From contig OZ219787.1 in NCBI GenBank assembly GCA_964291285.2, positions 960,001 through 1,024,000 of the forward strand: 64,000 bases of DNA, given 5' to 3'. Below the pieces are notes generated by a model. That model ran no database searches, was not told where the DNA came from, and saw only the letters and a program-made list of their open reading frames with translations. The DNA comes from Alphaproteobacteria bacterium (GTDB taxonomy: Bacteria > Pseudomonadota > Alphaproteobacteria > Bin95). Positions 10,054 to 55,685 of this stretch are shown here, piece after piece; the stretch's first letter is position 1; the number at the start of each line of letters is the position of its first letter. The translations under genes and the position numbers were made by a program.

Positions 10054-10642
10054 GGGCTGTCTCAATTTTACCCTCTAGCGGGCCCTGATCCGACCAACAC
10101 CCCTTCAACTCGGGGAGCCGCCCGCAACCGCGTAAACATTTACCTATATTTAGTATAGCAATTAGTAATACTCATAAAGTCCTTCGTTTTCGAGGGCGAG
10201 GGGGGGGGTATCGCATTGCCGCCGATGGCCGCCCGGAGGACGCCGGAACAGGGGCCGCTCGAGGACGGCCAGCGCATCGTGCTGACGCCGCTTCCCGCGG
10301 GCCAGCGTACGCAGCCGGCGGAACTGCTGGTGCTGGCCGGCAGCGTGCCGACTGCGCCCGAATATGTTGCAGGCCCCACCAGTGCGCCGGCGCTGCCCGC
10401 AGGCCTGCGCGGCAGCGCCGGCGGCAGCAATGCCATCGGTACTGCTGAGCGGGACACTTTGCCGGACTCGGAGGAACGCGACTGCCTGAGGCTGGCCGCT
10501 GGCGGGCATTATACCGGAGGCGCGGGCAACTGAAGCAAGGCCCCGACGGGTCGATAGAGGGCCGGGGCGGGAGGCAGTCCCCTTCCAAAGTCGCAAAGAA
10601 TGAAAAAAATCTAATGAAATTGATTTTTGTTCGTAATTTGAT

Positions 10643-10670
10643 CTTGACATCTGGCGGATTGTGATATGAT
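10643..10670 (+). promoter_or_regulatory. sigma70-like promoter with AT-rich upstream tract (copy A)
   Basis: CTTGAC-N16-TATGAT with TGn extended -10; A/T tract 10595-10640. Confidence 0.6.
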
Positions 10671-10752
10671 GGTCCCCAGGGAAGAGGCATCCGGAGCCGC
10701 TTCCCGGGCGTTGCGCGGCCGGGCGGCGCCATTTCTGAAAACCCGTGAGAAG

Positions 10753-10886
10753 CCGACGGGAGACGTGCGTCCTGCGTCTCGCGCGCGCAATCAGGCGCGC
10801 GAACCGCGCCGGCGCCGACACGCGCCCGGGCAGGCGCGGGCGCCCGCGCAGGATACGCGCGGAAACAGGGACCCGCTCCCCGTCGG
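10753..10886 (+). ncRNA. Putative structured RNA core, family not recognised (copy A)
   Basis: Blocks GACGGG..GTGCGYCCTGC..GCAATCAGGCGCGCGAACCGCGCC..GATAYGCGCG..CAGGG are shared by four copies; CCGACGGG pairs with CCCGTCGG. Confidence 0.5.
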
Positions 10887-11160
10887 AGAAGGAGGAACGA
10901 TGAGGGCAACCGACCCCCGCCCCGGGCTGGCGGCGATGCCGGCCGAAAGGCTCGCGCCGGCCGCCGCGGCCCTTGCCAGTGCCTATGCGGAGGAGATGAG
11001 CGCCGGGCCGCCGCCCATCTGCCAGAGCCTGTGCCCGCACCTGCCGGGGAGCCCGCGAACGACCCCGACGCCTGGGTCCCGCAGCCGGAGGCGCAGGCGC
11101 GGGCGGGTGGTAGGACCGGCTCCGTGTAGGCCGCAATGACCTCGTCCGCAAGCTCCTATC

Positions 11161-11265
11161 GTCACCCCGGCCGGAGCGGAGCGGAGAGCCGGGGTCCATC
11201 CTCCGCCCTCTCCACCGGACCGAAACGGTGGGGGACGGGTCCCGGTTCCGGGGCCGGGGCGACGG
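11161..11265. repeat. REP-like palindromic pair nested in copy A
   Basis: GTCACCCCGGCC...GCCGGGGTCCA followed by an inverted GGCCGGGGCGACG partner. Confidence 0.7.
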
Positions 11266-11520
11266 TGAACGCAAGACGCAGAAGGAGACCGAAGAGTGGA
11301 CAGCTTCATGCCTGAAACGGCTGCAGCATATGAACCCTGCGCATGCAGATCATGACATTCCATGACACATGGCGAGGGAAGCCCGGCGCGCCTCATGACA
11401 AAACATGACATCTCATGATGCCCCGGATGGAGCGGTCCGTTGTGCCGGGCAGCCGGGTCGAAAGGATTTGACCGGCGGGCGCTTCGGGCCTATTGGTGCG
11501 CCGCCGCACCACGCATGACC

Positions 11521-14727: not shown

Positions 14728-15345
14728 CTAGGGGCCGGCCAGCCGGGCTTCCGCCGAAGCCAGGTCCTCCGGCGTGTTGATGTTGAAGAAGGGGTCGCCT
14801 TCGGGCGGGACCGGGAATTCGACGTCGGCCATGCGGTGGCGGGCGGTCCACCGGTCCACCTTGCGCAGGCCCTCCTCGGCGAGCGCATGGCGCAAGTCGT
14901 CGGCGAGGCGGACGGTCCAGAGCGCGAAGACGGGATGGCGCTGCCCCCCGGACGTCGCGGTCACGATATCGGCGCTCCCTGCCTCGGCCGCCAGCTCGCG
15001 GACCAGCGTTGCGGGGAAGAAGGGCGCGTCGCAGGGGAAGCTCGCGACCCAGCCATAGCCGGCCTCGCGCGCCCAGAGCATGCCGGCGAGCACGCCCGCA
15101 AGCGGCCCGACGAAGCCGGCAACCGGATCGGGCAGCACGGGCAGGCCGAGTTCCGCGAATTCCTCCGCCGGCGCGTTGGCGTTGACGGCGAGGCACGCTA
15201 CCTGCGGGGCGGCGCGGGCGGCGGCATGGGCGAGCAGCGGCCGGCCGTCGAGGAGCGCCATGCCCTTCAGCCCGCCGCCCATGCGCCGGCCGAGGCCGCC
15301 CGCCAGCAGCAGGCCGGCGCAGTCACGCCGGGGGTCGGACGGCAC
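14728..15345 (-). CDS. mobA: Molybdenum cofactor guanylyltransferase
   Basis: LLAGGLGRRMGG, GPLAG, PCDAPF, FFNINTPEDL motifs. Confidence 0.92.
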   Translation of the reverse strand: MPSDPRRDCAGLLLAGGLGRRMGGGLKGMALLDGRPLLAHAAARAAPQVACLAVNANAPAEEFAELGLPVLPDPVAGFVGPLAGVLAGMLWAREAGYGWVASFPCDAPFFPATLVRELAAEAGSADIVTATSGGQRHPVFALWTVRLADDLRHALAEEGLRKVDRWTARHRMADVEFPVPPEGDPFFNINTPEDLASAEARLAGP

Positions 15346-15350
15346 AGGGC

Positions 15351-16202
15351 TCAGGCGGCGTCGCCGGTGGCGACTTCGGGGTTCGCGTCGAACACGAGGC
15401 GCTCCGCGCCGGAGAGCGCGATGAAGCGCTTGCCCTTGGCGCGCCCGACCAGCGTCAGCCCGGCCTGCCGGGCGAGCGCCACCCCCGAGGCCGTGAAGCC
15501 CGACCGGGAAATCAGGATCGGCACGCCCATCTGCACGGTCTTGATGACCATCTCGCTGGTGAGCCGCCCGGTGGTGAAAAACAGCTTTCCCTCCGGCGAA
15601 ACGCCGTTGAGGCGCATATAGCCGGCGATCATGTCCACCGCATTGTGCCGGCCCACATCCTCCAGATAGAGGATCGGCCGGTCGCCCTCGCAGAGCACGC
15701 AGCCATGGATCGCGCCGGCGGCCAGATAGAGGCTCGGACGGCGCGCGATCTTGGCCGAAAGCGTGTAGATCCAGGAGGTGTAAAGCGGGTCCGGGGGCAG
15801 GTCCGCCGCCTCGAAACTGTCCATCACGTCGGCGAACACCGTGCCGACGGCGCAGCCCGAAGTGCGGACCCGGCGTTCCAGCCGGTGCTCGTAGTCGGTC
15901 ATGCGCGCCGTGCGCACGACGGCGGCGTCGAGCTCGTCGTCTATGTCGATGCCGGTGATCTCGTCGTCCGGGCGCAGCATGTTCTGGTTGGCGAGGAAGC
16001 CGACGGCCAGCCAGTCGGCATGGTCGCCGACCGTCATCGCGGTCACGATCTCCTGGCTGTTCAGGTAGATGGTGAGGGGGCGTTCGACGACGACGCGCGT
16101 GCTGCGCTCCCGGCCCTCGTGGTCGATGCCGGTGACGGCTTCCGTCAGCCTCGGGTCGTCCGGGTCCGGCGCGACCAGGAACTCCTGCATGAACTCGCTC
16201 AT
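15351..16202 (-). CDS. fdhD: Formate dehydrogenase accessory sulfurtransferase
   Basis: ERPLTIYLN, GAIHGC, EDVGRHNAVD, TTGRLTSEMV motifs. Confidence 0.92.
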   Translation of the reverse strand: MSEFMQEFLVAPDPDDPRLTEAVTGIDHEGRERSTRVVVERPLTIYLNSQEIVTAMTVGDHADWLAVGFLANQNMLRPDDEITGIDIDDELDAAVVRTARMTDYEHRLERRVRTSGCAVGTVFADVMDSFEAADLPPDPLYTSWIYTLSAKIARRPSLYLAAGAIHGCVLCEGDRPILYLEDVGRHNAVDMIAGYMRLNGVSPEGKLFFTTGRLTSEMVIKTVQMGVPILISRSGFTASGVALARQAGLTLVGRAKGKRFIALSGAERLVFDANPEVATGDAA

Positions 16203-16224
16203 GTTCTCCACTATGCTCCGGGCC

Positions 16225-17424
16225 ATGGAGAGGCTCAACGACTGTTTCGCGGCGGGCGACCGGCTGCTGACCGTCGGCGAGGCGGCCGAACGGCTGAGCA
16301 CGCGCCTCGGCCCGGCGGTCGGCCGGGAGCGGATTCCGCTGTCGGAGGCGCGGGGCCGGATCCTGGCGGAACCGCTGACGAGCACGCTCGACGTGCCCGG
16401 CTACGACAACGCCGCGGTGGACGGCTACGCCTTCGCTCACGGCCGGGCGCATTACCGCATCGCCGGGCGGGCCGCGGCGGGACGGCCCTTTCCGCATCCG
16501 CTCGGACCCGGCGAGGCGGTCCGCATCCTGACCGGCGCGCCGGTGCCGGAAGGCGCCGACACGGTGGCGATGCAGGAGGACTGCGGCCTCGACGGCGAAA
16601 CCGTGACGGTGCCCGCAGGCCTCAGGGCGGGCGCCAACTACCGCATGGCCGGCGAGAACATCCGCCGGGGCGAGACGGTATTCGAGACAGGGCAGCGCCT
16701 CGGCCCGCTGCAACTGGGCGTCGCCGCATCGCTCGGCGAGACGGCGGTGGAGGTCTTCCGGCCGCTTCGCGTCGCGCTGTTCTCCACCGGGGACGAACTT
16801 GCGCGCCCCGGCGAACCGCTGGCGCCGGGGCAGCTCTACGACTCCAACCGGACGATGCTGCGCGCCTTCCTTGAGGCCGACGGGCTCGCCGTGACCGATC
16901 TGGGCATCCTTCCGGACGATGCGCCCTCGGTGAAGGCGGCGCTGGCCGAGGCGGCGGCCGGGCATGACGCGGTGATGACCTCGGCGGGCATCTCGACCGG
17001 CGACGAGGACCATGTGGCGGCGGCCGTTCCGGCGCTTCATTTCTGGCGCCTCGCGGTGAAGCCCGGCCGGCCGCTGGCGCTCGGCAGCATCGGGAGTGCG
17101 GCCTTTGTGGGCCTGCCCGGCAATCCGGTGGCCGCCGCCGCCTGCCTGCTGATGCTGGTGCGCCCGATGCTGGGCCTGCTGGGCGGCGCCGGCTGGGAAA
17201 CGCCGCCGTCGGTGCTTGTGCCCGCCGGCTTCGCCATGAAGAAGAAGACCGGGCGGCGGGAATGGCTGCGCGTCCGCCTCGGCGAGGACGGTGCGGCCAG
17301 GAAGGCCGGGCCCGACGGCTCGGCGCTGCTCCGCGTCATGGCCGAGGCCGACGGCCTGCTCGACGTGCCCGAGGACGTGGCCGCCATCGCCCCTGGCGAC
17401 CGCTTCCCGATGCTGCGCCTCTGA
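16225..17424 (+). CDS. moeA: Molybdopterin molybdotransferase
   Basis: AAVDGYA, RILTGAP, STGDEL, VKPGRP, GLPGNP motifs. Confidence 0.93.
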   Translation: MERLNDCFAAGDRLLTVGEAAERLSTRLGPAVGRERIPLSEARGRILAEPLTSTLDVPGYDNAAVDGYAFAHGRAHYRIAGRAAAGRPFPHPLGPGEAVRILTGAPVPEGADTVAMQEDCGLDGETVTVPAGLRAGANYRMAGENIRRGETVFETGQRLGPLQLGVAASLGETAVEVFRPLRVALFSTGDELARPGEPLAPGQLYDSNRTMLRAFLEADGLAVTDLGILPDDAPSVKAALAEAAAGHDAVMTSAGISTGDEDHVAAAVPALHFWRLAVKPGRPLALGSIGSAAFVGLPGNPVAAAACLLMLVRPMLGLLGGAGWETPPSVLVPAGFAMKKKTGRREWLRVRLGEDGAARKAGPDGSALLRVMAEADGLLDVPEDVAAIAPGDRFPMLRL

Positions 17425-17436
17425 CGCCGCCCGCCC

Positions 17437-18015
17437 ATGCGCCCGCAGGTCCTGACCGTCGGCCACTCCAACCATGCGCCGGAAACTTTTCTGGCGCTGC
17501 TGGTGCGGCATGGCGTGACGGCGCTCGGCGACGTGCGCTCCGCGCCCTCGAGCCGGTTCAATCCCCATTTCAACCGCAAGGCGCTTTCGGCGTCGCTCTC
17601 CGCCAGCGGCATCGCCTATGCCTGGCTTGGGCGCGAACTCGGCGGACGGCCGGACGATCCCGCCTGCTACGAGGATGGCGAACTCTGTTACGACCGTCTT
17701 GCCCGGACTGCGCTTTACCGGCAGGGAATCGAACGGGTCCTGCGCGGCGCGGCGGAGCACCGGCTGGCGCTGATGTGCGCGGAGAAGGACCCGCTCCACT
17801 GCCACCGCGCGCTGCTGGTCTCCCGCTCGCTCGAGGATGAAGGGCTGGAGGTCGCCCATATCCTCGCGGACGGCAGTCTCGAACCTCATGACAGCGTCAT
17901 GGACCGGCTGCTCGCCGCCCGCCGCCCGGAGGACGACCTGTTCGCAGCAGGGAAGTCGCGCGCCGACTGGATCGCCGAGGCCGCCCGCATGCCGCGCCGC
18001 CGCAAGCGCGCCTGA
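17437..18015 (+). CDS. DUF488 family protein
   Basis: TVGHSN, DVRSAP, ELGGR, LMCAEKDPLHCHR motifs. Confidence 0.88.
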   Translation: MRPQVLTVGHSNHAPETFLALLVRHGVTALGDVRSAPSSRFNPHFNRKALSASLSASGIAYAWLGRELGGRPDDPACYEDGELCYDRLARTALYRQGIERVLRGAAEHRLALMCAEKDPLHCHRALLVSRSLEDEGLEVAHILADGSLEPHDSVMDRLLAARRPEDDLFAAGKSRADWIAEAARMPRRRKRA

Positions 18016-18063
18016 CCCGTACCCCGGAAGACGGCGCGGCTGCCGGGGCACACTCCAGCGCGA

Positions 18064-18509
18064 TGTCATGATGTGTCATGTTTTGTCATGGGCGCCGCCG
18101 GAAATGTCATGTTTTGTCATGGTCCGCCGCGCCTCCGCCCCGGCCCCATCGCTGCCCGTTCGTATCCCGCATGTCGTTCGTCCGTCATGTTTCGTTCCAC
18201 TCCGTTCCGTTCGCCCCGCCGCCGGTTCGCCCATGCGGCGGGACCCTGATTCGCGCATATCGCGCGCGGGGGCGCGCGCGTCGGCGGCGGCGCGGTTCGC
18301 GCGCCTGATTGCGCCTGCGCGCGCGTAGGCCCAAATGCAGGGCGCACCTGTCCCGTCAGCTTCCCAGGGTGTTTTTCGCGCCGGCGCGAACCGGGAGAGC
18401 GGGCGGCCCCGCGCGGATGCCGCCGCCTCTCTCCCGGCCTATTTAGTTACAGAATCAGAGAGTGTCAATCCTAAAAACAGAAATTTTTCATAAATAGTGA
18501 ACAAAATGC
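18064..18509 (-). repeat. Dispersed element copy B
   Basis: TTGACA (reverse complement at 18463-18468); 24-mer 18289-18312; TGTCATG boxes at 18064, 18074, 18084, 18105, 18115. Confidence 0.85.
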
Positions 18510-18529
18510 TCCTGCGGCCACGGAGCCTG

Positions 18530-19405
18530 TCATACGGCCCACAGCGGCGGCGCGCCGGGGCGGTGGAAGTCGATCCAGGCGCCGAGGCCGTCCGACGGCG
18601 GCACCAGCAGGCGGTCCGGCCGCCCATGGACGGTAATGCCCGCGTTCGCAAGAAGGAAGCGCGAGCGATCGAGGTCGGCGCTCTCGATGCCGACGGCGGC
18701 GCCGAAGGGCGGCGGCGGGTGGGGCGCGTCCGGCAACAGGGCGCCGAGCGCATCCGGGCCCGCTAGCGCGAAGCGGCCGCGGTCGAGCGCGATCTCGAAA
18801 ACCGGTCCCGACCTGCGCGCGGGGCGGTTGGCGAAGCGGGCGTAGCGGCCGGCGGCCTCTTCCGGGTCGGCGACGATCTGCAGGAAGCCGGTGAGCGCCC
18901 GCGCGGCGTTGGCGTGGCGGTCCATGCCCGGCAGCCAGATGAGGTCCGGCGTCTCGTGGGTGAGCAGCTGCACCCGGCCTTCCGGCATCGCCTCGGCCGT
19001 TGCCCGGCGCACGGTCGCGCGCACGATGCGGCCGTCCTCCAGCGGGCGGCGCAGGAAGACGGTCGGGCGCATGTCCGTGCCGCCGGCATCGTGCTCTTCG
19101 ACCCGTTCATGCGCGAGCGCAATTAGGTGCAGCCCCTCATAGCGCGCGACGCCGGCGGCGAGTTCCGCACCAAGCGGCGTATCCGCTGCCTGGCCCAGCG
19201 CCTCGATATAGCCCGCCTCGAACGTGATCAGCCGGTTGGCGGTGCCCGACCGCACGAGTTCGCCGTCAGCGCTGTTGTAGTGGATGTTGACCGGCGACAC
19301 GGTGAAGCCGAGCCGCTCGAACCGGGCGGCGGCCCCCTCCAGATCGGCGAGGAAATAGCCGACATGGTCCAGGAAAAGCTCGTTGCCCGTCGGAAGCTGT
19401 TTCAT
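18530..19405 (-). CDS. VOC/glyoxalase-like protein
   Basis: LDHVG, GTANRLI..YIE, HANAA motifs; ATGA overlap with the upstream MFS gene. Confidence 0.8.
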   Translation of the reverse strand: MKQLPTGNELFLDHVGYFLADLEGAAARFERLGFTVSPVNIHYNSADGELVRSGTANRLITFEAGYIEALGQAADTPLGAELAAGVARYEGLHLIALAHERVEEHDAGGTDMRPTVFLRRPLEDGRIVRATVRRATAEAMPEGRVQLLTHETPDLIWLPGMDRHANAARALTGFLQIVADPEEAAGRYARFANRPARRSGPVFEIALDRGRFALAGPDALGALLPDAPHPPPPFGAAVGIESADLDRSRFLLANAGITVHGRPDRLLVPPSDGLGAWIDFHRPGAPPLWAV

Positions 19406-20616
19406 GCCGTTGCCCTCGCGCGGCTGACATTGCGGTTCGTCTCGACGAAGGTGGCGACGGCGAGCAGCATGACGGCCGCGCTGCCGAAGAACACCCAGCG
19501 CGGGTCGCCCATGTCCATCACCCAGCCGAACAGGACCGGCGTCATGAAGCCTCCGATGGACAGCCCGGTGGAGGTGAAGCCGAACACCTTGCCCATCTGC
19601 CCCGGCGGCGAGATGCGGCGCACCAGCAGGTCGCGGGTCGGCATGATCGCGCCGTGCGCGATGCCCGAGACCATCATCAGCGGGAGGATGCCGTAGAGCG
19701 GCAGCGGAACCGCGCCGATGATGTTGACCGCGACGAACACCGTGCCGATGGCGCCGAAGAACACGAGCTGCGGGCGCCCGGTGCGGTCCACCAGCCAGCC
19801 GCCAGCCAGATTGCCGACCGAGGCCGCCACCATATAGGCGATCAGCGCCTTGGCGATGACCGTGTCCTCGAAGCCGCGCAGGTCGTGCAGCGCCGGAATG
19901 CCGAAGGTGCGGATGCCGCCGAGCGACATGGAATGGAACATCTGGAACAGGAACAGCAGCACGACCGGCACCGTCAGCAGCAGCGCGATCCCGTCCGAGG
20001 TCGAGCCGCCCTGTTCGCGCCGCCGCGCCCTGCCGTCGGCGCTTTCCAGATGCCGGGACTGGAGCAGGAGCGCAAAGGAGACGGCGATCCCGATGGCGCC
20101 GGCCGTCAGGAAGACGCCCCGGAGGCCGACGATGTCGGCGAGGTCGGGACCGAGCAGCGCCAGGATCCACCCGGCATTGCCGGCGACGGCGTGGATGGAG
20201 AAGGCGCGCCCCATGCGGTGCTCGGCGACCGATGCCGACAGAATGGCGTAGTCGGCGGGGTGGAAGACGGAGTTGGCGATGCCGCCGATGACCGCGAGCG
20301 GCAGCATGGCCCAGAAGGAGGAGACCAGCCCGAAGCCCATCACGGCTCCGGAAAGCACGGCAACGCCCAGGATGAGCGGCGCCCGCCCGCCGATGCGGTC
20401 GACGATGAATCCGACGCCCGTCTGGCAGACCGCCGCGCCGACCGAGAAGGCGCCCGCCAGGATGCCGATTTCCAGATAGCTGAAGCCGTGCTCGTCGTGC
20501 ATGCGCACCGAAAGCGGCAGCAGCATGAACACGAACATGTGGCTCATCGTGTGCCCGACGGCCACGAGACCGATGACCCGCGCATCGCGGGAGAAGCTGT
20601 CGACGGGCGTCGTCAT
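19402..20616 (-). CDS. MFS transporter (Fsr-like)
   Basis: About 12 TM segments; DRIGGR and NSVFHPADY motifs. Confidence 0.88.
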   Translation of the reverse strand: MTTPVDSFSRDARVIGLVAVGHTMSHMFVFMLLPLSVRMHDEHGFSYLEIGILAGAFSVGAAVCQTGVGFIVDRIGGRAPLILGVAVLSGAVMGFGLVSSFWAMLPLAVIGGIANSVFHPADYAILSASVAEHRMGRAFSIHAVAGNAGWILALLGPDLADIVGLRGVFLTAGAIGIAVSFALLLQSRHLESADGRARRREQGGSTSDGIALLLTVPVVLLFLFQMFHSMSLGGIRTFGIPALHDLRGFEDTVIAKALIAYMVAASVGNLAGGWLVDRTGRPQLVFFGAIGTVFVAVNIIGAVPLPLYGILPLMMVSGIAHGAIMPTRDLLVRRISPPGQMGKVFGFTSTGLSIGGFMTPVLFGWVMDMGDPRWVFFGSAAVMLLAVATFVETNRNVSRARATA

Positions 20617-28537: not shown

Positions 28538-28659
28538 GGCCGCCCAGCCTGCCACGCGCCGGGCGCAACCTCCAGATGCGATGCGCGGGCCTTGCAGCCC
28601 CGGCCGGCGCCGTATGCCCCATCCCGTTCCGGCCCGCTATCCGGCACACCCGCGCACCG

Positions 28660-29320
28660 TGTCATGAGATGTCATGTTTTGTCATGTTCCGGGGGCGGAA
28701 TGTCATGTTTTGTCATGTTCCGATCCACCCCTCCTCGTCACCCCGGCCCCCGAGCCGGGGTCCAGCCTCGGTTCTCGCGGCGGCCCCGGATCGGGGGCCG
28801 GGGCAGGCCTCGGCGGTTCGGTCCACCCTCTGCCGGCCGCGGCGGTATCGGGAGTCATGGATGGACCCCGGCTCGGGGGCCGGGGTGACTGTTGAGGGCC
28901 GGGATGGGAGGCCATCCTGTCCGCCCGGCCGCCGCCTGGCCGCCGACCCTCTCCCGACCTCTCCCTCGTGCGGGAGAGGCGGTTTCGCGTCTCCGTCCGT
29001 ATGCTGCATGCCGTTCCGCTCCGTTCTCCCCGCCGCCGGCCCGCCCGGCGCGGCGGGACCCTGTTTCGCGCGTATCGCGCCCGCCTGCCCGCGCGCGTCG
29101 CCGCCGGCGCGGTTCGCGCGCCTGATTGCCCGCGCGCGAGGCGGGCGCAGGGCGCACGTCTCCCGTCCGTTTCCCGGAGGTTTTTAAATTCGCGCCGGCG
29201 CGAACCGGGAGAGGAAGCGGCTCGGCGCGGACACCGCTCCCTTCCTGCCGCCATATATCGGCGCTGCCGTTCCCGGTGTCAACCCGTATTCAGAATTATT
29301 TCTTTTTTCCTAAACAAATC
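28660..29320 (-). repeat. Dispersed element copy C
   Basis: TTGACA (reverse complement at 29277-29282); 24-mer 29106-29129; TGTCATG boxes at 28660, 28670, 28680, 28701, 28711. Confidence 0.85.
28737..28889. repeat. REP/BIME-like inverted pair nested in copy C
   Basis: Perfect 28-bp IR GTCACCCCGGCCCCCGAGCCGGGGTCCA at 28737-28764 and 28862-28889. Confidence 0.85.
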
Positions 29321-54940: not shown

Positions 54941-55136
54941 GATGCGTGCCCTCCGCTGTCAGGCCGGGAGTGTAGCACTGCCGCACAAACGGTCGAAGCC
55001 GAACCGGAGCCAGCCGGACCGGCCCTTCGCAGCGCTTTCGGACAGGCAACCGGGGCGTTGAAGGCTGCCCTGCGAGACCGCACGACGCCAGGCGACGCAC
55101 GAAACCGTCCGGCCCATAGAGTCCACTCCACGCAAG

Positions 55137-55589
55137 TGTCATGAGATGTCATGATCTGCATGTGCACAGCACATATGCTGTGATTCTTTCGGGCATGGCG
55201 CCGCCGTTTCGGGCGGTAGCTCCGGTTATGTCGTCCGGTTTGTCCGACTTCGCGTCTTCGGCATAGCCGACTTCTCCTGAGCCTGTTTCGTTCCATTCAT
55301 CTCGCCGCCGGCTACCCCAGGGCGGCAGGACCCTGATTCGCGCATATCGTGCGCGGGCGCCTGTGCCGGCGCGGGTGCGTGTCGGCGCCGGCGCGGTTCG
55401 CGCGCCTGATTGCGCGCACGCGAGGCAAGCGCAGGACGCACCTCACCTGTCGGCTGAATCGGGGTCGTTCCGCACCGGGCCGGCGCGGGCGGAAAGCGGC
55501 TCCGGATGCCTCCTCCCTCGCACTCATCATATCACAATTTCTGAAAATACAAGCCAAGAATGGAGAAATATTGCCTAAATACAAAATGC
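55137..55589 (-). repeat. Dispersed element copy D
   Basis: CTTGTA-N16-TATGAT (reverse complement at 55526-55553); 24-mer 55390-55413; TGTCATG boxes at 55137 and 55147; shares CAGCATATG..CATGCAGATCATGACA with copy A. Confidence 0.85.
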
Positions 55590-55685
55590 GTACTGCCCCT
55601 TTCACTGCCCCGCCCGAGGCCGGGATGACGGATGGGGCCATGCGACGCCCGGCCAGCTGCCGGGGATGTGAGAAGCCGGCAGGAG

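Follow-up and report, generated by a model that had tools for sequence, protein, structure and literature searches.

A multicopy cassette family with a small-terminase-like protein and helically phased CATGACA boxes in an alphaproteobacterial genus

Four copies in the window and their family in the genome

The window analysed here is a 64-kb stretch of contig OZ219787.1, part of a 6.13-Mb, five-contig genome of 68% GC from an Alphaproteobacteria bacterium (G000, 100% complete; the other G handles denote sister species), and it contains four intergenic copies, A to D, of one polar element. A sequence-only reading had placed four copies at these sites, and the 24-mer that it gave as common to them, GCAATCAGGCGCGCGAACCGCGCC, is indeed present with 0 mismatches in each, at 10787-10810 (+), 18289-18312 (-), 29106-29129 (-) and 55390-55413 (-), while none of 100 dinucleotide shuffles contained any match to it. 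The flanks GTGCGYCCTG and GATAYGCGCG..CAGGG, the AT-rich tract, the TTGACA hexamer (TTGTAT in copy D) and the CATGACA boxes described in that reading can all be read in the sequence, with the following layout:

10595-10675 (+): copy A, predicted promoter; AT-rich tract, TTGACA at 10644-10649, TATGAT at 10665-10670, spacer 15 nt
10676-10899 (+): copy A, GC-rich leader; first hairpin, GTGCGTCCTG at 10765-10774, 24-mer at 10787-10810, GATACGCGCG at 10852-10861, CAGGG at 10867-10871
within 10676-10899 (+): copy A, Shine-Dalgarno sequence of the leader, AAGGAGGAAC
10900-11139 (+): copy A, decayed M-type cargo remnant of 79 aa (MTATDPRP... family), matching the intact protein P0121
11140-11350 (+): copy A, filler; REP-like (repetitive extragenic palindrome) GC hairpins and a conserved pre-box segment (..GCGCATGCAGAT)
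11351-11420 (+): copy A, box array; CATGACA at 11351, 11361, 11394 and 11404 (spacings 10, 33, 10), degenerate CATGATG at 11414
18050-18508 (-): copy B, whole element; TTGACA 18468 to 18463, CTAAAT 18446 to 18441, 24-mer 18289-18312
18064, 18074, 18084, 18105, 18115 (-): copy B, five boxes, given as plus-strand coordinates of TGTCATG
28645-29320 (-): copy C, whole element; TTGACA 29282 to 29277, 24-mer 29106-29129, REP-like hairpins inside the cargo
28660, 28670, 28680, 28701, 28711 (-): copy C, five boxes
55125-55590 (-): copy D, whole element; TTGTAT 55552 to 55547, TATGAT 55531 to 55526, 24-mer 55390-55413
55137, 55147 (-): copy D, two boxes; 6 nt further, an inverted-repeat remnant of the insertion sequence (IS) type IS3 (TGGAGTGGAC..)

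The pre-box segment of copy A recurs in many other arrays, and its box array is followed by a weak end motif of about 15 nt; the idea that the end motif is the loop of the first hairpin was rejected by a position-frequency comparison. Copy D has a leader head of the type found on copies with a terminase-like gene (see below), and its cargo is a short MPKT... remnant. Pairwise identities of 68% for A and D and 72% for B and C, against 60-66% for the remaining pairs, lend modest support to a division into subfamilies A/D and B/C. The hairpins that had been assigned to REP elements in copies A and C are REP-like, but the REP motif named for them is rare, its 12-mer having 29 matches in the genome. 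The left flank of copy A (10162-10600) has no counterpart in sister genomes, and synteny resumes directly to the right of the element, at about 11390-11490, so that this copy marks a synteny breakpoint.

Across the genome, 92 cores match the 24-mer with at most three mismatches (68 exactly, 15 with one, eight with two and one with three), 46 on each strand, and a reversed-pattern control gave 0 matches in the whole genome; the high copy number that had been predicted from four copies in 64 kb is thus borne out. Similarity between copies starts about 225 nt 5' of the 24-mer and stops just past the boxes. A complete member is about 1.5 kb long and consists of an AT-rich promoter, a GC-rich leader of about 250 nt with the 24-mer, one gene, and a terminal array of CATGACA boxes; elements range from 0.45 to 1.5 kb and have a single open reading frame (ORF). 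The AT-rich tract and promoter layout of copy A are present in most of the 92 copies, with a -35/-10 spacer of 15-17 nt, and the stretch from -225 to -150 averages 51% AT compared to 32% for the genome. The -10 hexamers resemble the alphaproteobacterial consensus.

CATGACA occurs 901 times in the genome, a threefold excess over the approximately 310 expected from base composition, and 445 of these boxes fall in 121 same-strand clusters. Such a cluster lies within 1300 nt downstream of the core in 82 of the 92 elements, while no core has one upstream or on the opposite strand (0/92 each). Arrays have two to eight boxes, and the 10-bp periodicity noted in the window holds throughout: of 258 spacings, 206 are 10 bp, 19 are 21 bp, 16 are 32-33 bp and six are 42-44 bp. 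These are multiples of approximately 10.6 bp, which would put the boxes on one face of B-DNA and suggests a DNA-binding protein rather than an RNA motif. Arrays with at least three boxes at 10-bp spacing (e.g., 18064-18090 and 28660-28686) contain ATG and TGA in all three frames, so that any ORF running into such an array stops there. The three large replicons each carry an element about every 58 kb, the two small ones are more sparsely populated, and no strand polarity was found along the replicons. The family makes up about 1% of these genomes and probably fragments their draft assemblies.

Cargo genes, distribution and separable modules

The sequence-only reading saw a short, non-conserved ORF between core and boxes. 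Listing the ORFs in this position shows instead that the cargo is the remnant of one of two conserved gene families, T type (329 aa) and M type (192-218 aa); the ORF of copy A (10900-11139), for example, is 67% identical over its first 39 residues to the intact 192-aa M-type protein P0121. Many short copies are internal deletions of T-type or M-type genes. In this genome, both types of ORF stop inside the boxes, ending in ..HDKT and ..HDIS before the stop codon. The same listing did not yield the autonomous version that had been anticipated among the longest copies, as the longest copy carries no transposase. The M-type protein is acidic and intact in four copies; it has no Pfam domain and 175 homologues in the protein collection, and an ESM Atlas search with it gave best scores of 0.84-0.85 and no family. 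Outside the window, copy C3_1748411 carries an ORF of about 225 aa between core and boxes that by eye looks like an isochorismatase-family hydrolase, suggesting that foreign genes can be captured as cargo.

The T-type protein has nine full-length, one nearly full-length and four N-terminal fragment copies in the genome. Residues 11-71 match the Pfam family Terminase_2 (profile positions 2-62 of 141, E = 1.8e-11), and all 12 Terminase_2 matches above the cut-off in the genome lie inside an element. Among 338 homologues, the best-hit ones aligned are 72-84% identical, and the few homologues with a name are called "terminase small subunit". With relatives at 44-47% identity included, the alignment shows N-terminal 200 residues that are conserved and an acidic tail that varies. 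All 24 homologues aligned (24 of 24) share SARQTG, the putative recognition stretch, without change, which parallels the invariant TGAC core of the boxes. An AlphaFold2 model has a mean predicted local distance difference test score of 61, with residues 11-110 at 77-92 and long helices at 52-106. Its best match in the PDB is 4zc3, the small-terminase DNA-binding domain of phage SF6 (TM-score to the target 0.85, root-mean-square deviation [rmsd] 1.6 Å, 41% identity), and 2cmp matches as well. Also among the best matches is a full-length small terminase of SPP1-like type, 3zqq, with an alignment of 125 columns at 25% identity and an rmsd of 7.7 Å. With six phage small-terminase (TerS) genes, the protein has 33-48% identity over that N-terminal stretch. 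In a crude scan, three related phage terS loci in IMG/VR (34% identity) had no phased repeats. As regards the central oligomerisation domain, by which small terminases of this type form 8-11-mer rings, Pfam matches to Terminase_2 end at profile position 62-75, and the model has the long helices just mentioned. A homo-oligomer prediction with four copies of residues 8-205 gave a median of 0.39 against a mark of 0.42, which we use neither for nor against an oligomer. The T-type gene is the commonest intact cargo; its product combines an SF6/SPP1-type small-terminase helix-turn-helix (HTH) domain with long helices C-terminal to it and an acidic tail.

A second repeated motif accompanies these genes. 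GAAC(A/G) occurs at intervals of about 11 bp just 5' of the start codon in terminase-like genes (e.g., L158 and L168), and the stretch GGAACGGAACGG in copies B (~18190-18215) and C (~29005-29030) has GAAC(A/G) repeats with the same spacing. Its complement, TTGTTC, is found at the left edge of 46 of the 92 copies, compared to 1.7% of random 140-nt windows. The HTH protein may use these motifs as a second, weaker operator.

Of the 16 other species in the genus, 13 have the 24-mer, each in 10-119 copies, and it was not found in eight genomes of two sister genera or in 16 genomes of other families; among the sister species with matches listed, the exact form recurs in G016, G002 and G004. Pairs of adjacent boxes (doublets) follow the cores: the 13 core-bearing species have 23-319 of them, against 0-1 in the three core-free species and in 20 genomes of sister genera. 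The T-type gene is found in 12 of the 16 other species, and is missing from the three element-free species and from G008.

Orthologous sites differ in occupancy, as had been proposed as a check. Copy B has orthologues in G015 and G002; conservation across the three species covers promoter, leader, the region of the 24-mer and the last three boxes, while the cargo is unalignable. The G015 orthologue has a 2-nt insertion that preserves the GGCGCG/CGCGCC hairpin. In the element-free G013, copy B is missing and the spacer is 110 bp. G006, G004 and G009 lack copy C: at their orthologous site, 110 bp correspond to approximately 905 bp of this genome. The junctions of copy C are too diverged for a duplication to be read; the extra flanks of 75 and 95 bp are unique in the genome, and no clean junction was seen. 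Presence and absence at orthologous sites indicate that the family moves over evolutionary time.

G008 is informative with respect to the organisation of the element. Its 45 cores, 38 of which share one private C-to-T substitution (GGTGCGCG) that points to a burst from a single master, occur without any T-type gene and with the lowest ratio of doublets to cores (23/45 = 0.5); the ratio is 1.45-5.8 in eleven of the twelve other core-bearing species, and G011 has 217 doublets and just 10 cores. The arrays are decayed in all 14 G008 loci read, with 0-3 canonical boxes left. The copies are also short, as if a mini form had undergone a burst in this lineage. The converse arrangement is seen for the T-type relatives at 44-47% identity, which are found in other lineages of metagenome-assembled genomes, including bins labelled sponge Rhodospirillaceae: they have a promoter, a short 5' untranslated region in which GAACA recurs at a distance of 11 bp and, where the ORF ends, CNTGACR boxes spaced 10 bp, but no GC-rich leader. 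The element therefore consists of two separable modules, with gene and boxes occurring without the leader in these relatives and leaders occurring without the gene in G008. The expectation that core and boxes go together accordingly holds within this genome, but not in G008 or the distant relatives. G008 is also the best, though single, indication that the boxes may be maintained by the T-type protein.

Readings of the family

The combination of features fits no described mobile element, and none of the known families takes it in when judged by its defining features; literature searches, as far as listings and abstracts go, found no account of such an element. The likeness to the small terminase and pac site of SPP1/SF6-like phages lies in the HTH fold, the 41% identity to the SF6 domain and the Terminase_2 match, and also in the recognition site, direct repeats in or next to the terS gene with a helical-turn spacing that matches the spacing of HTH motifs in the ring. 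In its passages on small terminases, PMC4737164 places adjacent HTH motifs of the rings about one turn of B-DNA apart, describes that DNA may wrap round the ring, and reports direct repeats in the SPP1 pac site. The differences are that the protein here has 329 aa with a long acidic tail, that no large terminase was found, with four Pfam families, beside the gene or elsewhere in the genome, that phage genes are lacking in its vicinity, and that 9-10 intact gene copies and approximately 120 arrays are distributed over the chromosome, with the array at the 3' end of the gene.

Phage satellites, such as phage-inducible chromosomal islands, carry their own TerS to redirect packaging, and the logic proposed below is similar, i.e., a chromosomal non-phage element with a TerS-type protein and its own recognition site. 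Satellites are, however, single-copy, 5-15 kb long and equipped with integrase, replication and regulatory genes, whereas the present elements measure 0.45-1.5 kb, have one gene, no integrase and their own structured leader, and number about 100. Miniature inverted-repeat transposable elements (MITEs), REP/BIME and Correia elements are likewise high-copy, intergenic, mosaic and, for the most part, short and non-coding; copies tend to lie behind genes and are hot spots for the insertion of specific IS elements. In contrast to those, the present elements lack terminal inverted repeats and target duplications and have a strict polarity, running from a promoter to phased boxes at the opposite end, and their master copies encode a DNA-binding protein that is not a transposase; a MITE would be recognised by its terminal repeats, target-site duplication and an autonomous IS with transposase, and here even the coding copies have no transposase. 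From the layout only, integron cassettes share the variable cargo and the promoter-less units that follow a promoter-bearing unit head-to-tail, each ending in a repeat-type site, but differ in having one platform, attI, where an IntI integrase recognises the attC site of the cassette, rather than approximately 90 independent promoter-bearing loci, and the cargo repertoire here is tiny. REP/RAYT (REPIN) elements, which are characterised by a Y1 HUH transposase and short palindromic units in inverted pairs, differ, again judged from layout, in being palindromic doublets, while the elements here are long and polar.

We tentatively regard copies A to D as decayed and non-coding, and as belonging to a family of about 100 selfish cassettes that are interspersed in the genome and specific to the genus; short copies like these keep only the cis-acting parts. 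The reading that we favour, though we would not yet call it probable, is that the array is the platform of the family's own small-terminase-like protein and that DNA-processing machinery from outside the element exploits the complex. The T-type protein would oligomerise and wrap the box arrays, both the one that closes its own gene (in cis) and, in trans, all of the approximately 120 in the genome. For the outside machinery, which would make use of this nucleoprotein mark, the most plausible candidate is the large terminase of an infecting phage; the arrays would then be pac-site mimics, and the element would be packaged and spread together with neighbouring DNA. Leader and promoter would form a second, separable module able to persist and amplify alone. 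Within this scheme, the pairing of the T-type protein with the CATGACA boxes is on balance probable, and the suggestion that the boxes are read by a trans-acting protein has gained from the finding that the longest copies encode a predicted HTH protein whose ORF ends inside them. The packaging step is unlikely as matters stand. We count in favour of the scheme the linkage of cores and boxes, the fit between the HTH spacing given for small-terminase rings in those passages and boxes spaced 10-11 bp, and the joint absence of cores, doublets and terminase-like gene from the three core-free species.

Several results weigh against this scheme. No large terminase (PF03237, PF03354, PF04466, PF05876) was found in the complete genome, in which HK97-capsid profiles gave one weak hit, so that the packaging partner would have to come from outside. 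The spacing of elements is indistinguishable from random (coefficient of variation 1.02, compared to 1.05 ± 0.09 for random placement), giving no sign of a headful-related layout, and packaging leaves unexplained how copies arrive at new chromosomal sites. By sequence, the likeness to TerS is limited to the first 60-70 residues, with nothing matching beyond approximately residue 125, and Foldseek E-values for the whole T-type model are weak (0.14-0.23). The correlation of gene loss with box decay rests on one genome, G008, and it is in G008 that promoter-plus-leader units multiply, or at least persist, without the terminase-like gene. Finally, the promoter reported by the sequence-only reading stands as far as TTGACA, a -10-like hexamer and the AT-rich tract are concerned, but a scan with a generic E. 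coli-type sigma-70 consensus calls none of the element promoters, which is why we treat it as predicted.

A bolder version, which we consider doubtful, would make these the smallest phage or gene-transfer-agent parasites yet seen: one-gene cassettes with a TerS-like protein and a pac-like array about every 58 kb, at which an incoming pac-type phage would start headful packaging from many chromosomal points, with the leader 24-mer as a new cis-acting RNA or DNA signal for self-copying. If so, the whole genome would become transducible DNA, with sabotage of the phage as a side effect; marking approximately 120 sites for packaging would be a new way for a genome, or its parasite, to control phage-mediated gene transfer in yet-uncultured bacteria. 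The family in any case supplies an invariant 24-nt candidate signal and a testable protein-DNA pair, i.e., the HTH protein and CATGACA boxes at 10-bp phasing.

Alternatively, the cassettes could be conventional non-autonomous DNA elements, MITE- or cassette-like, moved by a recombinase or transposase encoded elsewhere, with the boxes and perhaps the 24-mer as its sites and the terminase-like protein as accessory or cargo. We consider this a serious rival, though somewhat unlikely, and several observations would suit it: occupancy differs between orthologous sites, a few coding masters have given rise to many copies by internal deletion, the cis-acting parts are conserved while the cargo drifts, and the G008 burst took place without a terminase-like gene. 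The mosaic pattern in which heads and cargos are combined would suit it as well, as would units placed directly behind arrays as if integrated there: in G002, promoter-less second units follow the box array of a first unit and start at different points inside the leader, and a 200-bp "module 2", present ten times in this genome, begins right after a box array and closes with boxes of its own. Against it, inspection by eye of the ends of 70-odd copies gave no consistent terminal inverted repeats or target duplications, the motif past the last box is weakly conserved, and none of the 92 copies has an internal transposase or recombinase, the long inserts being unrelated IS elements; the sequence-only reading had come to the same view of the four window copies. 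No candidate enzyme was identified, whole gene sets not having been compared between species. Four reverse transcriptase genes are present in the genome, none of which adjoins an element (the nearest is about 11 kb away), and a distant blastn search of the plasmid collection with copy B gave no match.

Less plausible again, and quite unlikely in our view though still a serious rival, is that the leader RNA is the functional product, i.e., that these are multicopy small-RNA or cis-regulatory RNA genes with a strong promoter, in which the 24-mer is a protein- or RNA-binding site and the boxes are a protein-bound roadblock or 3'-end signal. The invariance of the 24-mer (68 of 92 copies here, and the exact form in three sister species) would fit such a function, as would the persistence of promoter and leader in G008 without gene or boxes. 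Several features of the pairing would fit as well: seven of the 15 single-substitution variants exchange C for U, retaining a G-U pair in the GGCGCG/CGCGCC hairpin, which the G015 insertion also preserves; in the first hairpin, 87% of cells are paired, 34 of them as G-U, with a covariation score of 0.175, reached by 1 of 500 shuffles, compared to 0.147 in shuffles; and a second stem, read from the alignment, is kept with three quite different sequences. On the other hand, minimum free energy z-scores for the leaders of eight copies range from only -0.1 to -3.75, and the antisense strand is more stable by 5.4 kcal/mol on average, with the sense strand more stable in 27 of 79 copies. RNAalifold, applied to MAFFT alignments of the whole leader, core and 5' part, returned 12 invariant-type pairs and 0 compensatory changes for the core and no consensus structure for the 5' part; an invariant core leaves almost no covariation to detect. 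The whole 64-kb window has 0 Rfam matches at gathering thresholds, in line with the earlier statement that no known RNA family applies, and a permissive scan of the four copies gave a single, chance-level hit (anti-hemB, 19.6 bits against a threshold of 49.5), so that Rfam offers no explanation. Transcription is itself presumed, and 92 copies with variable protein-coding cargo are hard to square with a host RNA gene. The earlier proposal of a new non-coding RNA gene family is therefore not upheld, with only the first hairpin mildly covarying.

The sole RNA data found, a metatranscriptome in the form of contigs, contained a fraction of 0.06 of the sampled words. Over 15000-19500, the bin with the core of copy B has a summed depth of 556, compared to approximately 10-30 in the flanks, but the excess is equal or larger in runs X2 and X6, whose library type is not on record (34020 vs. 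~440 and 6690 vs. ~150). It thus reflects copy number and is silent on expression, and we rejected it as evidence for transcription. One low-share metatranscriptome match and some of the distant relatives come from sponges.

That the elements are portable promoters which switch on the downstream gene, with boxes that stop and restart translation, is very improbable, since, for all that most copies have a consensus-like -35 hexamer behind an AT-rich tract, that copies A to C have no intrinsic terminator on the element strand after their arrays and that three boxes at 10 bp put ATG and TGA in every frame, crude gene calls show no preference in the downstream gene (convergent in 44 of 92 copies, co-oriented in 48) and an upstream gene co-oriented in 61, suggesting that elements sit behind genes and do not systematically drive a neighbour, and copy B lies between two convergent gene ends.

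Insertions into the elements

Thirteen of the 92 copies are interrupted by IS elements, and fixed positions in the family attract IS elements of at least three families. One belongs to the IS3 family, with ends TGGAGTGGGCCCC... and 3-bp duplications (TGC or GCC, for instance); it, or a solo end of it, is seen at about 20 arrays, exactly 6 nt past the last CATGACA box or 4 nt before the first (e.g., G000:C1:689771-691020). Within the window, such ends lie 6 nt past the last box in copy D (~55118-55131) and copy B (~18045-18057). These fixed positions indicate a strong target preference for array edges. IS1397, another IS3-family element, is said to be specific for REP units.

Outside the window, an element assigned by eye to the IS110 family, with a 343-aa DEDD-type transposase (MERIFVGIDVAKDRL...), occupies the same position just 5' of GTGCG in four copies (C1_641337, C1_860071, C2_876777 and C3_1277676), which points to homing on the conserved leader. 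The sites taken by a third IS (ends ..CCGAGTTGCGGAAGTCGGGCTA) are TTAG/CTAA and lie in the -10 region or directly behind GCGCGAAT of the core; the copies hit in this way include C1_257876, C2_676545, C3_685896, C3_831596, C3_941238, C2_344315 and C2_1145157. By eye, C1_694120 carries an IS1634-like element and C3_1723123 an IS21-like element.

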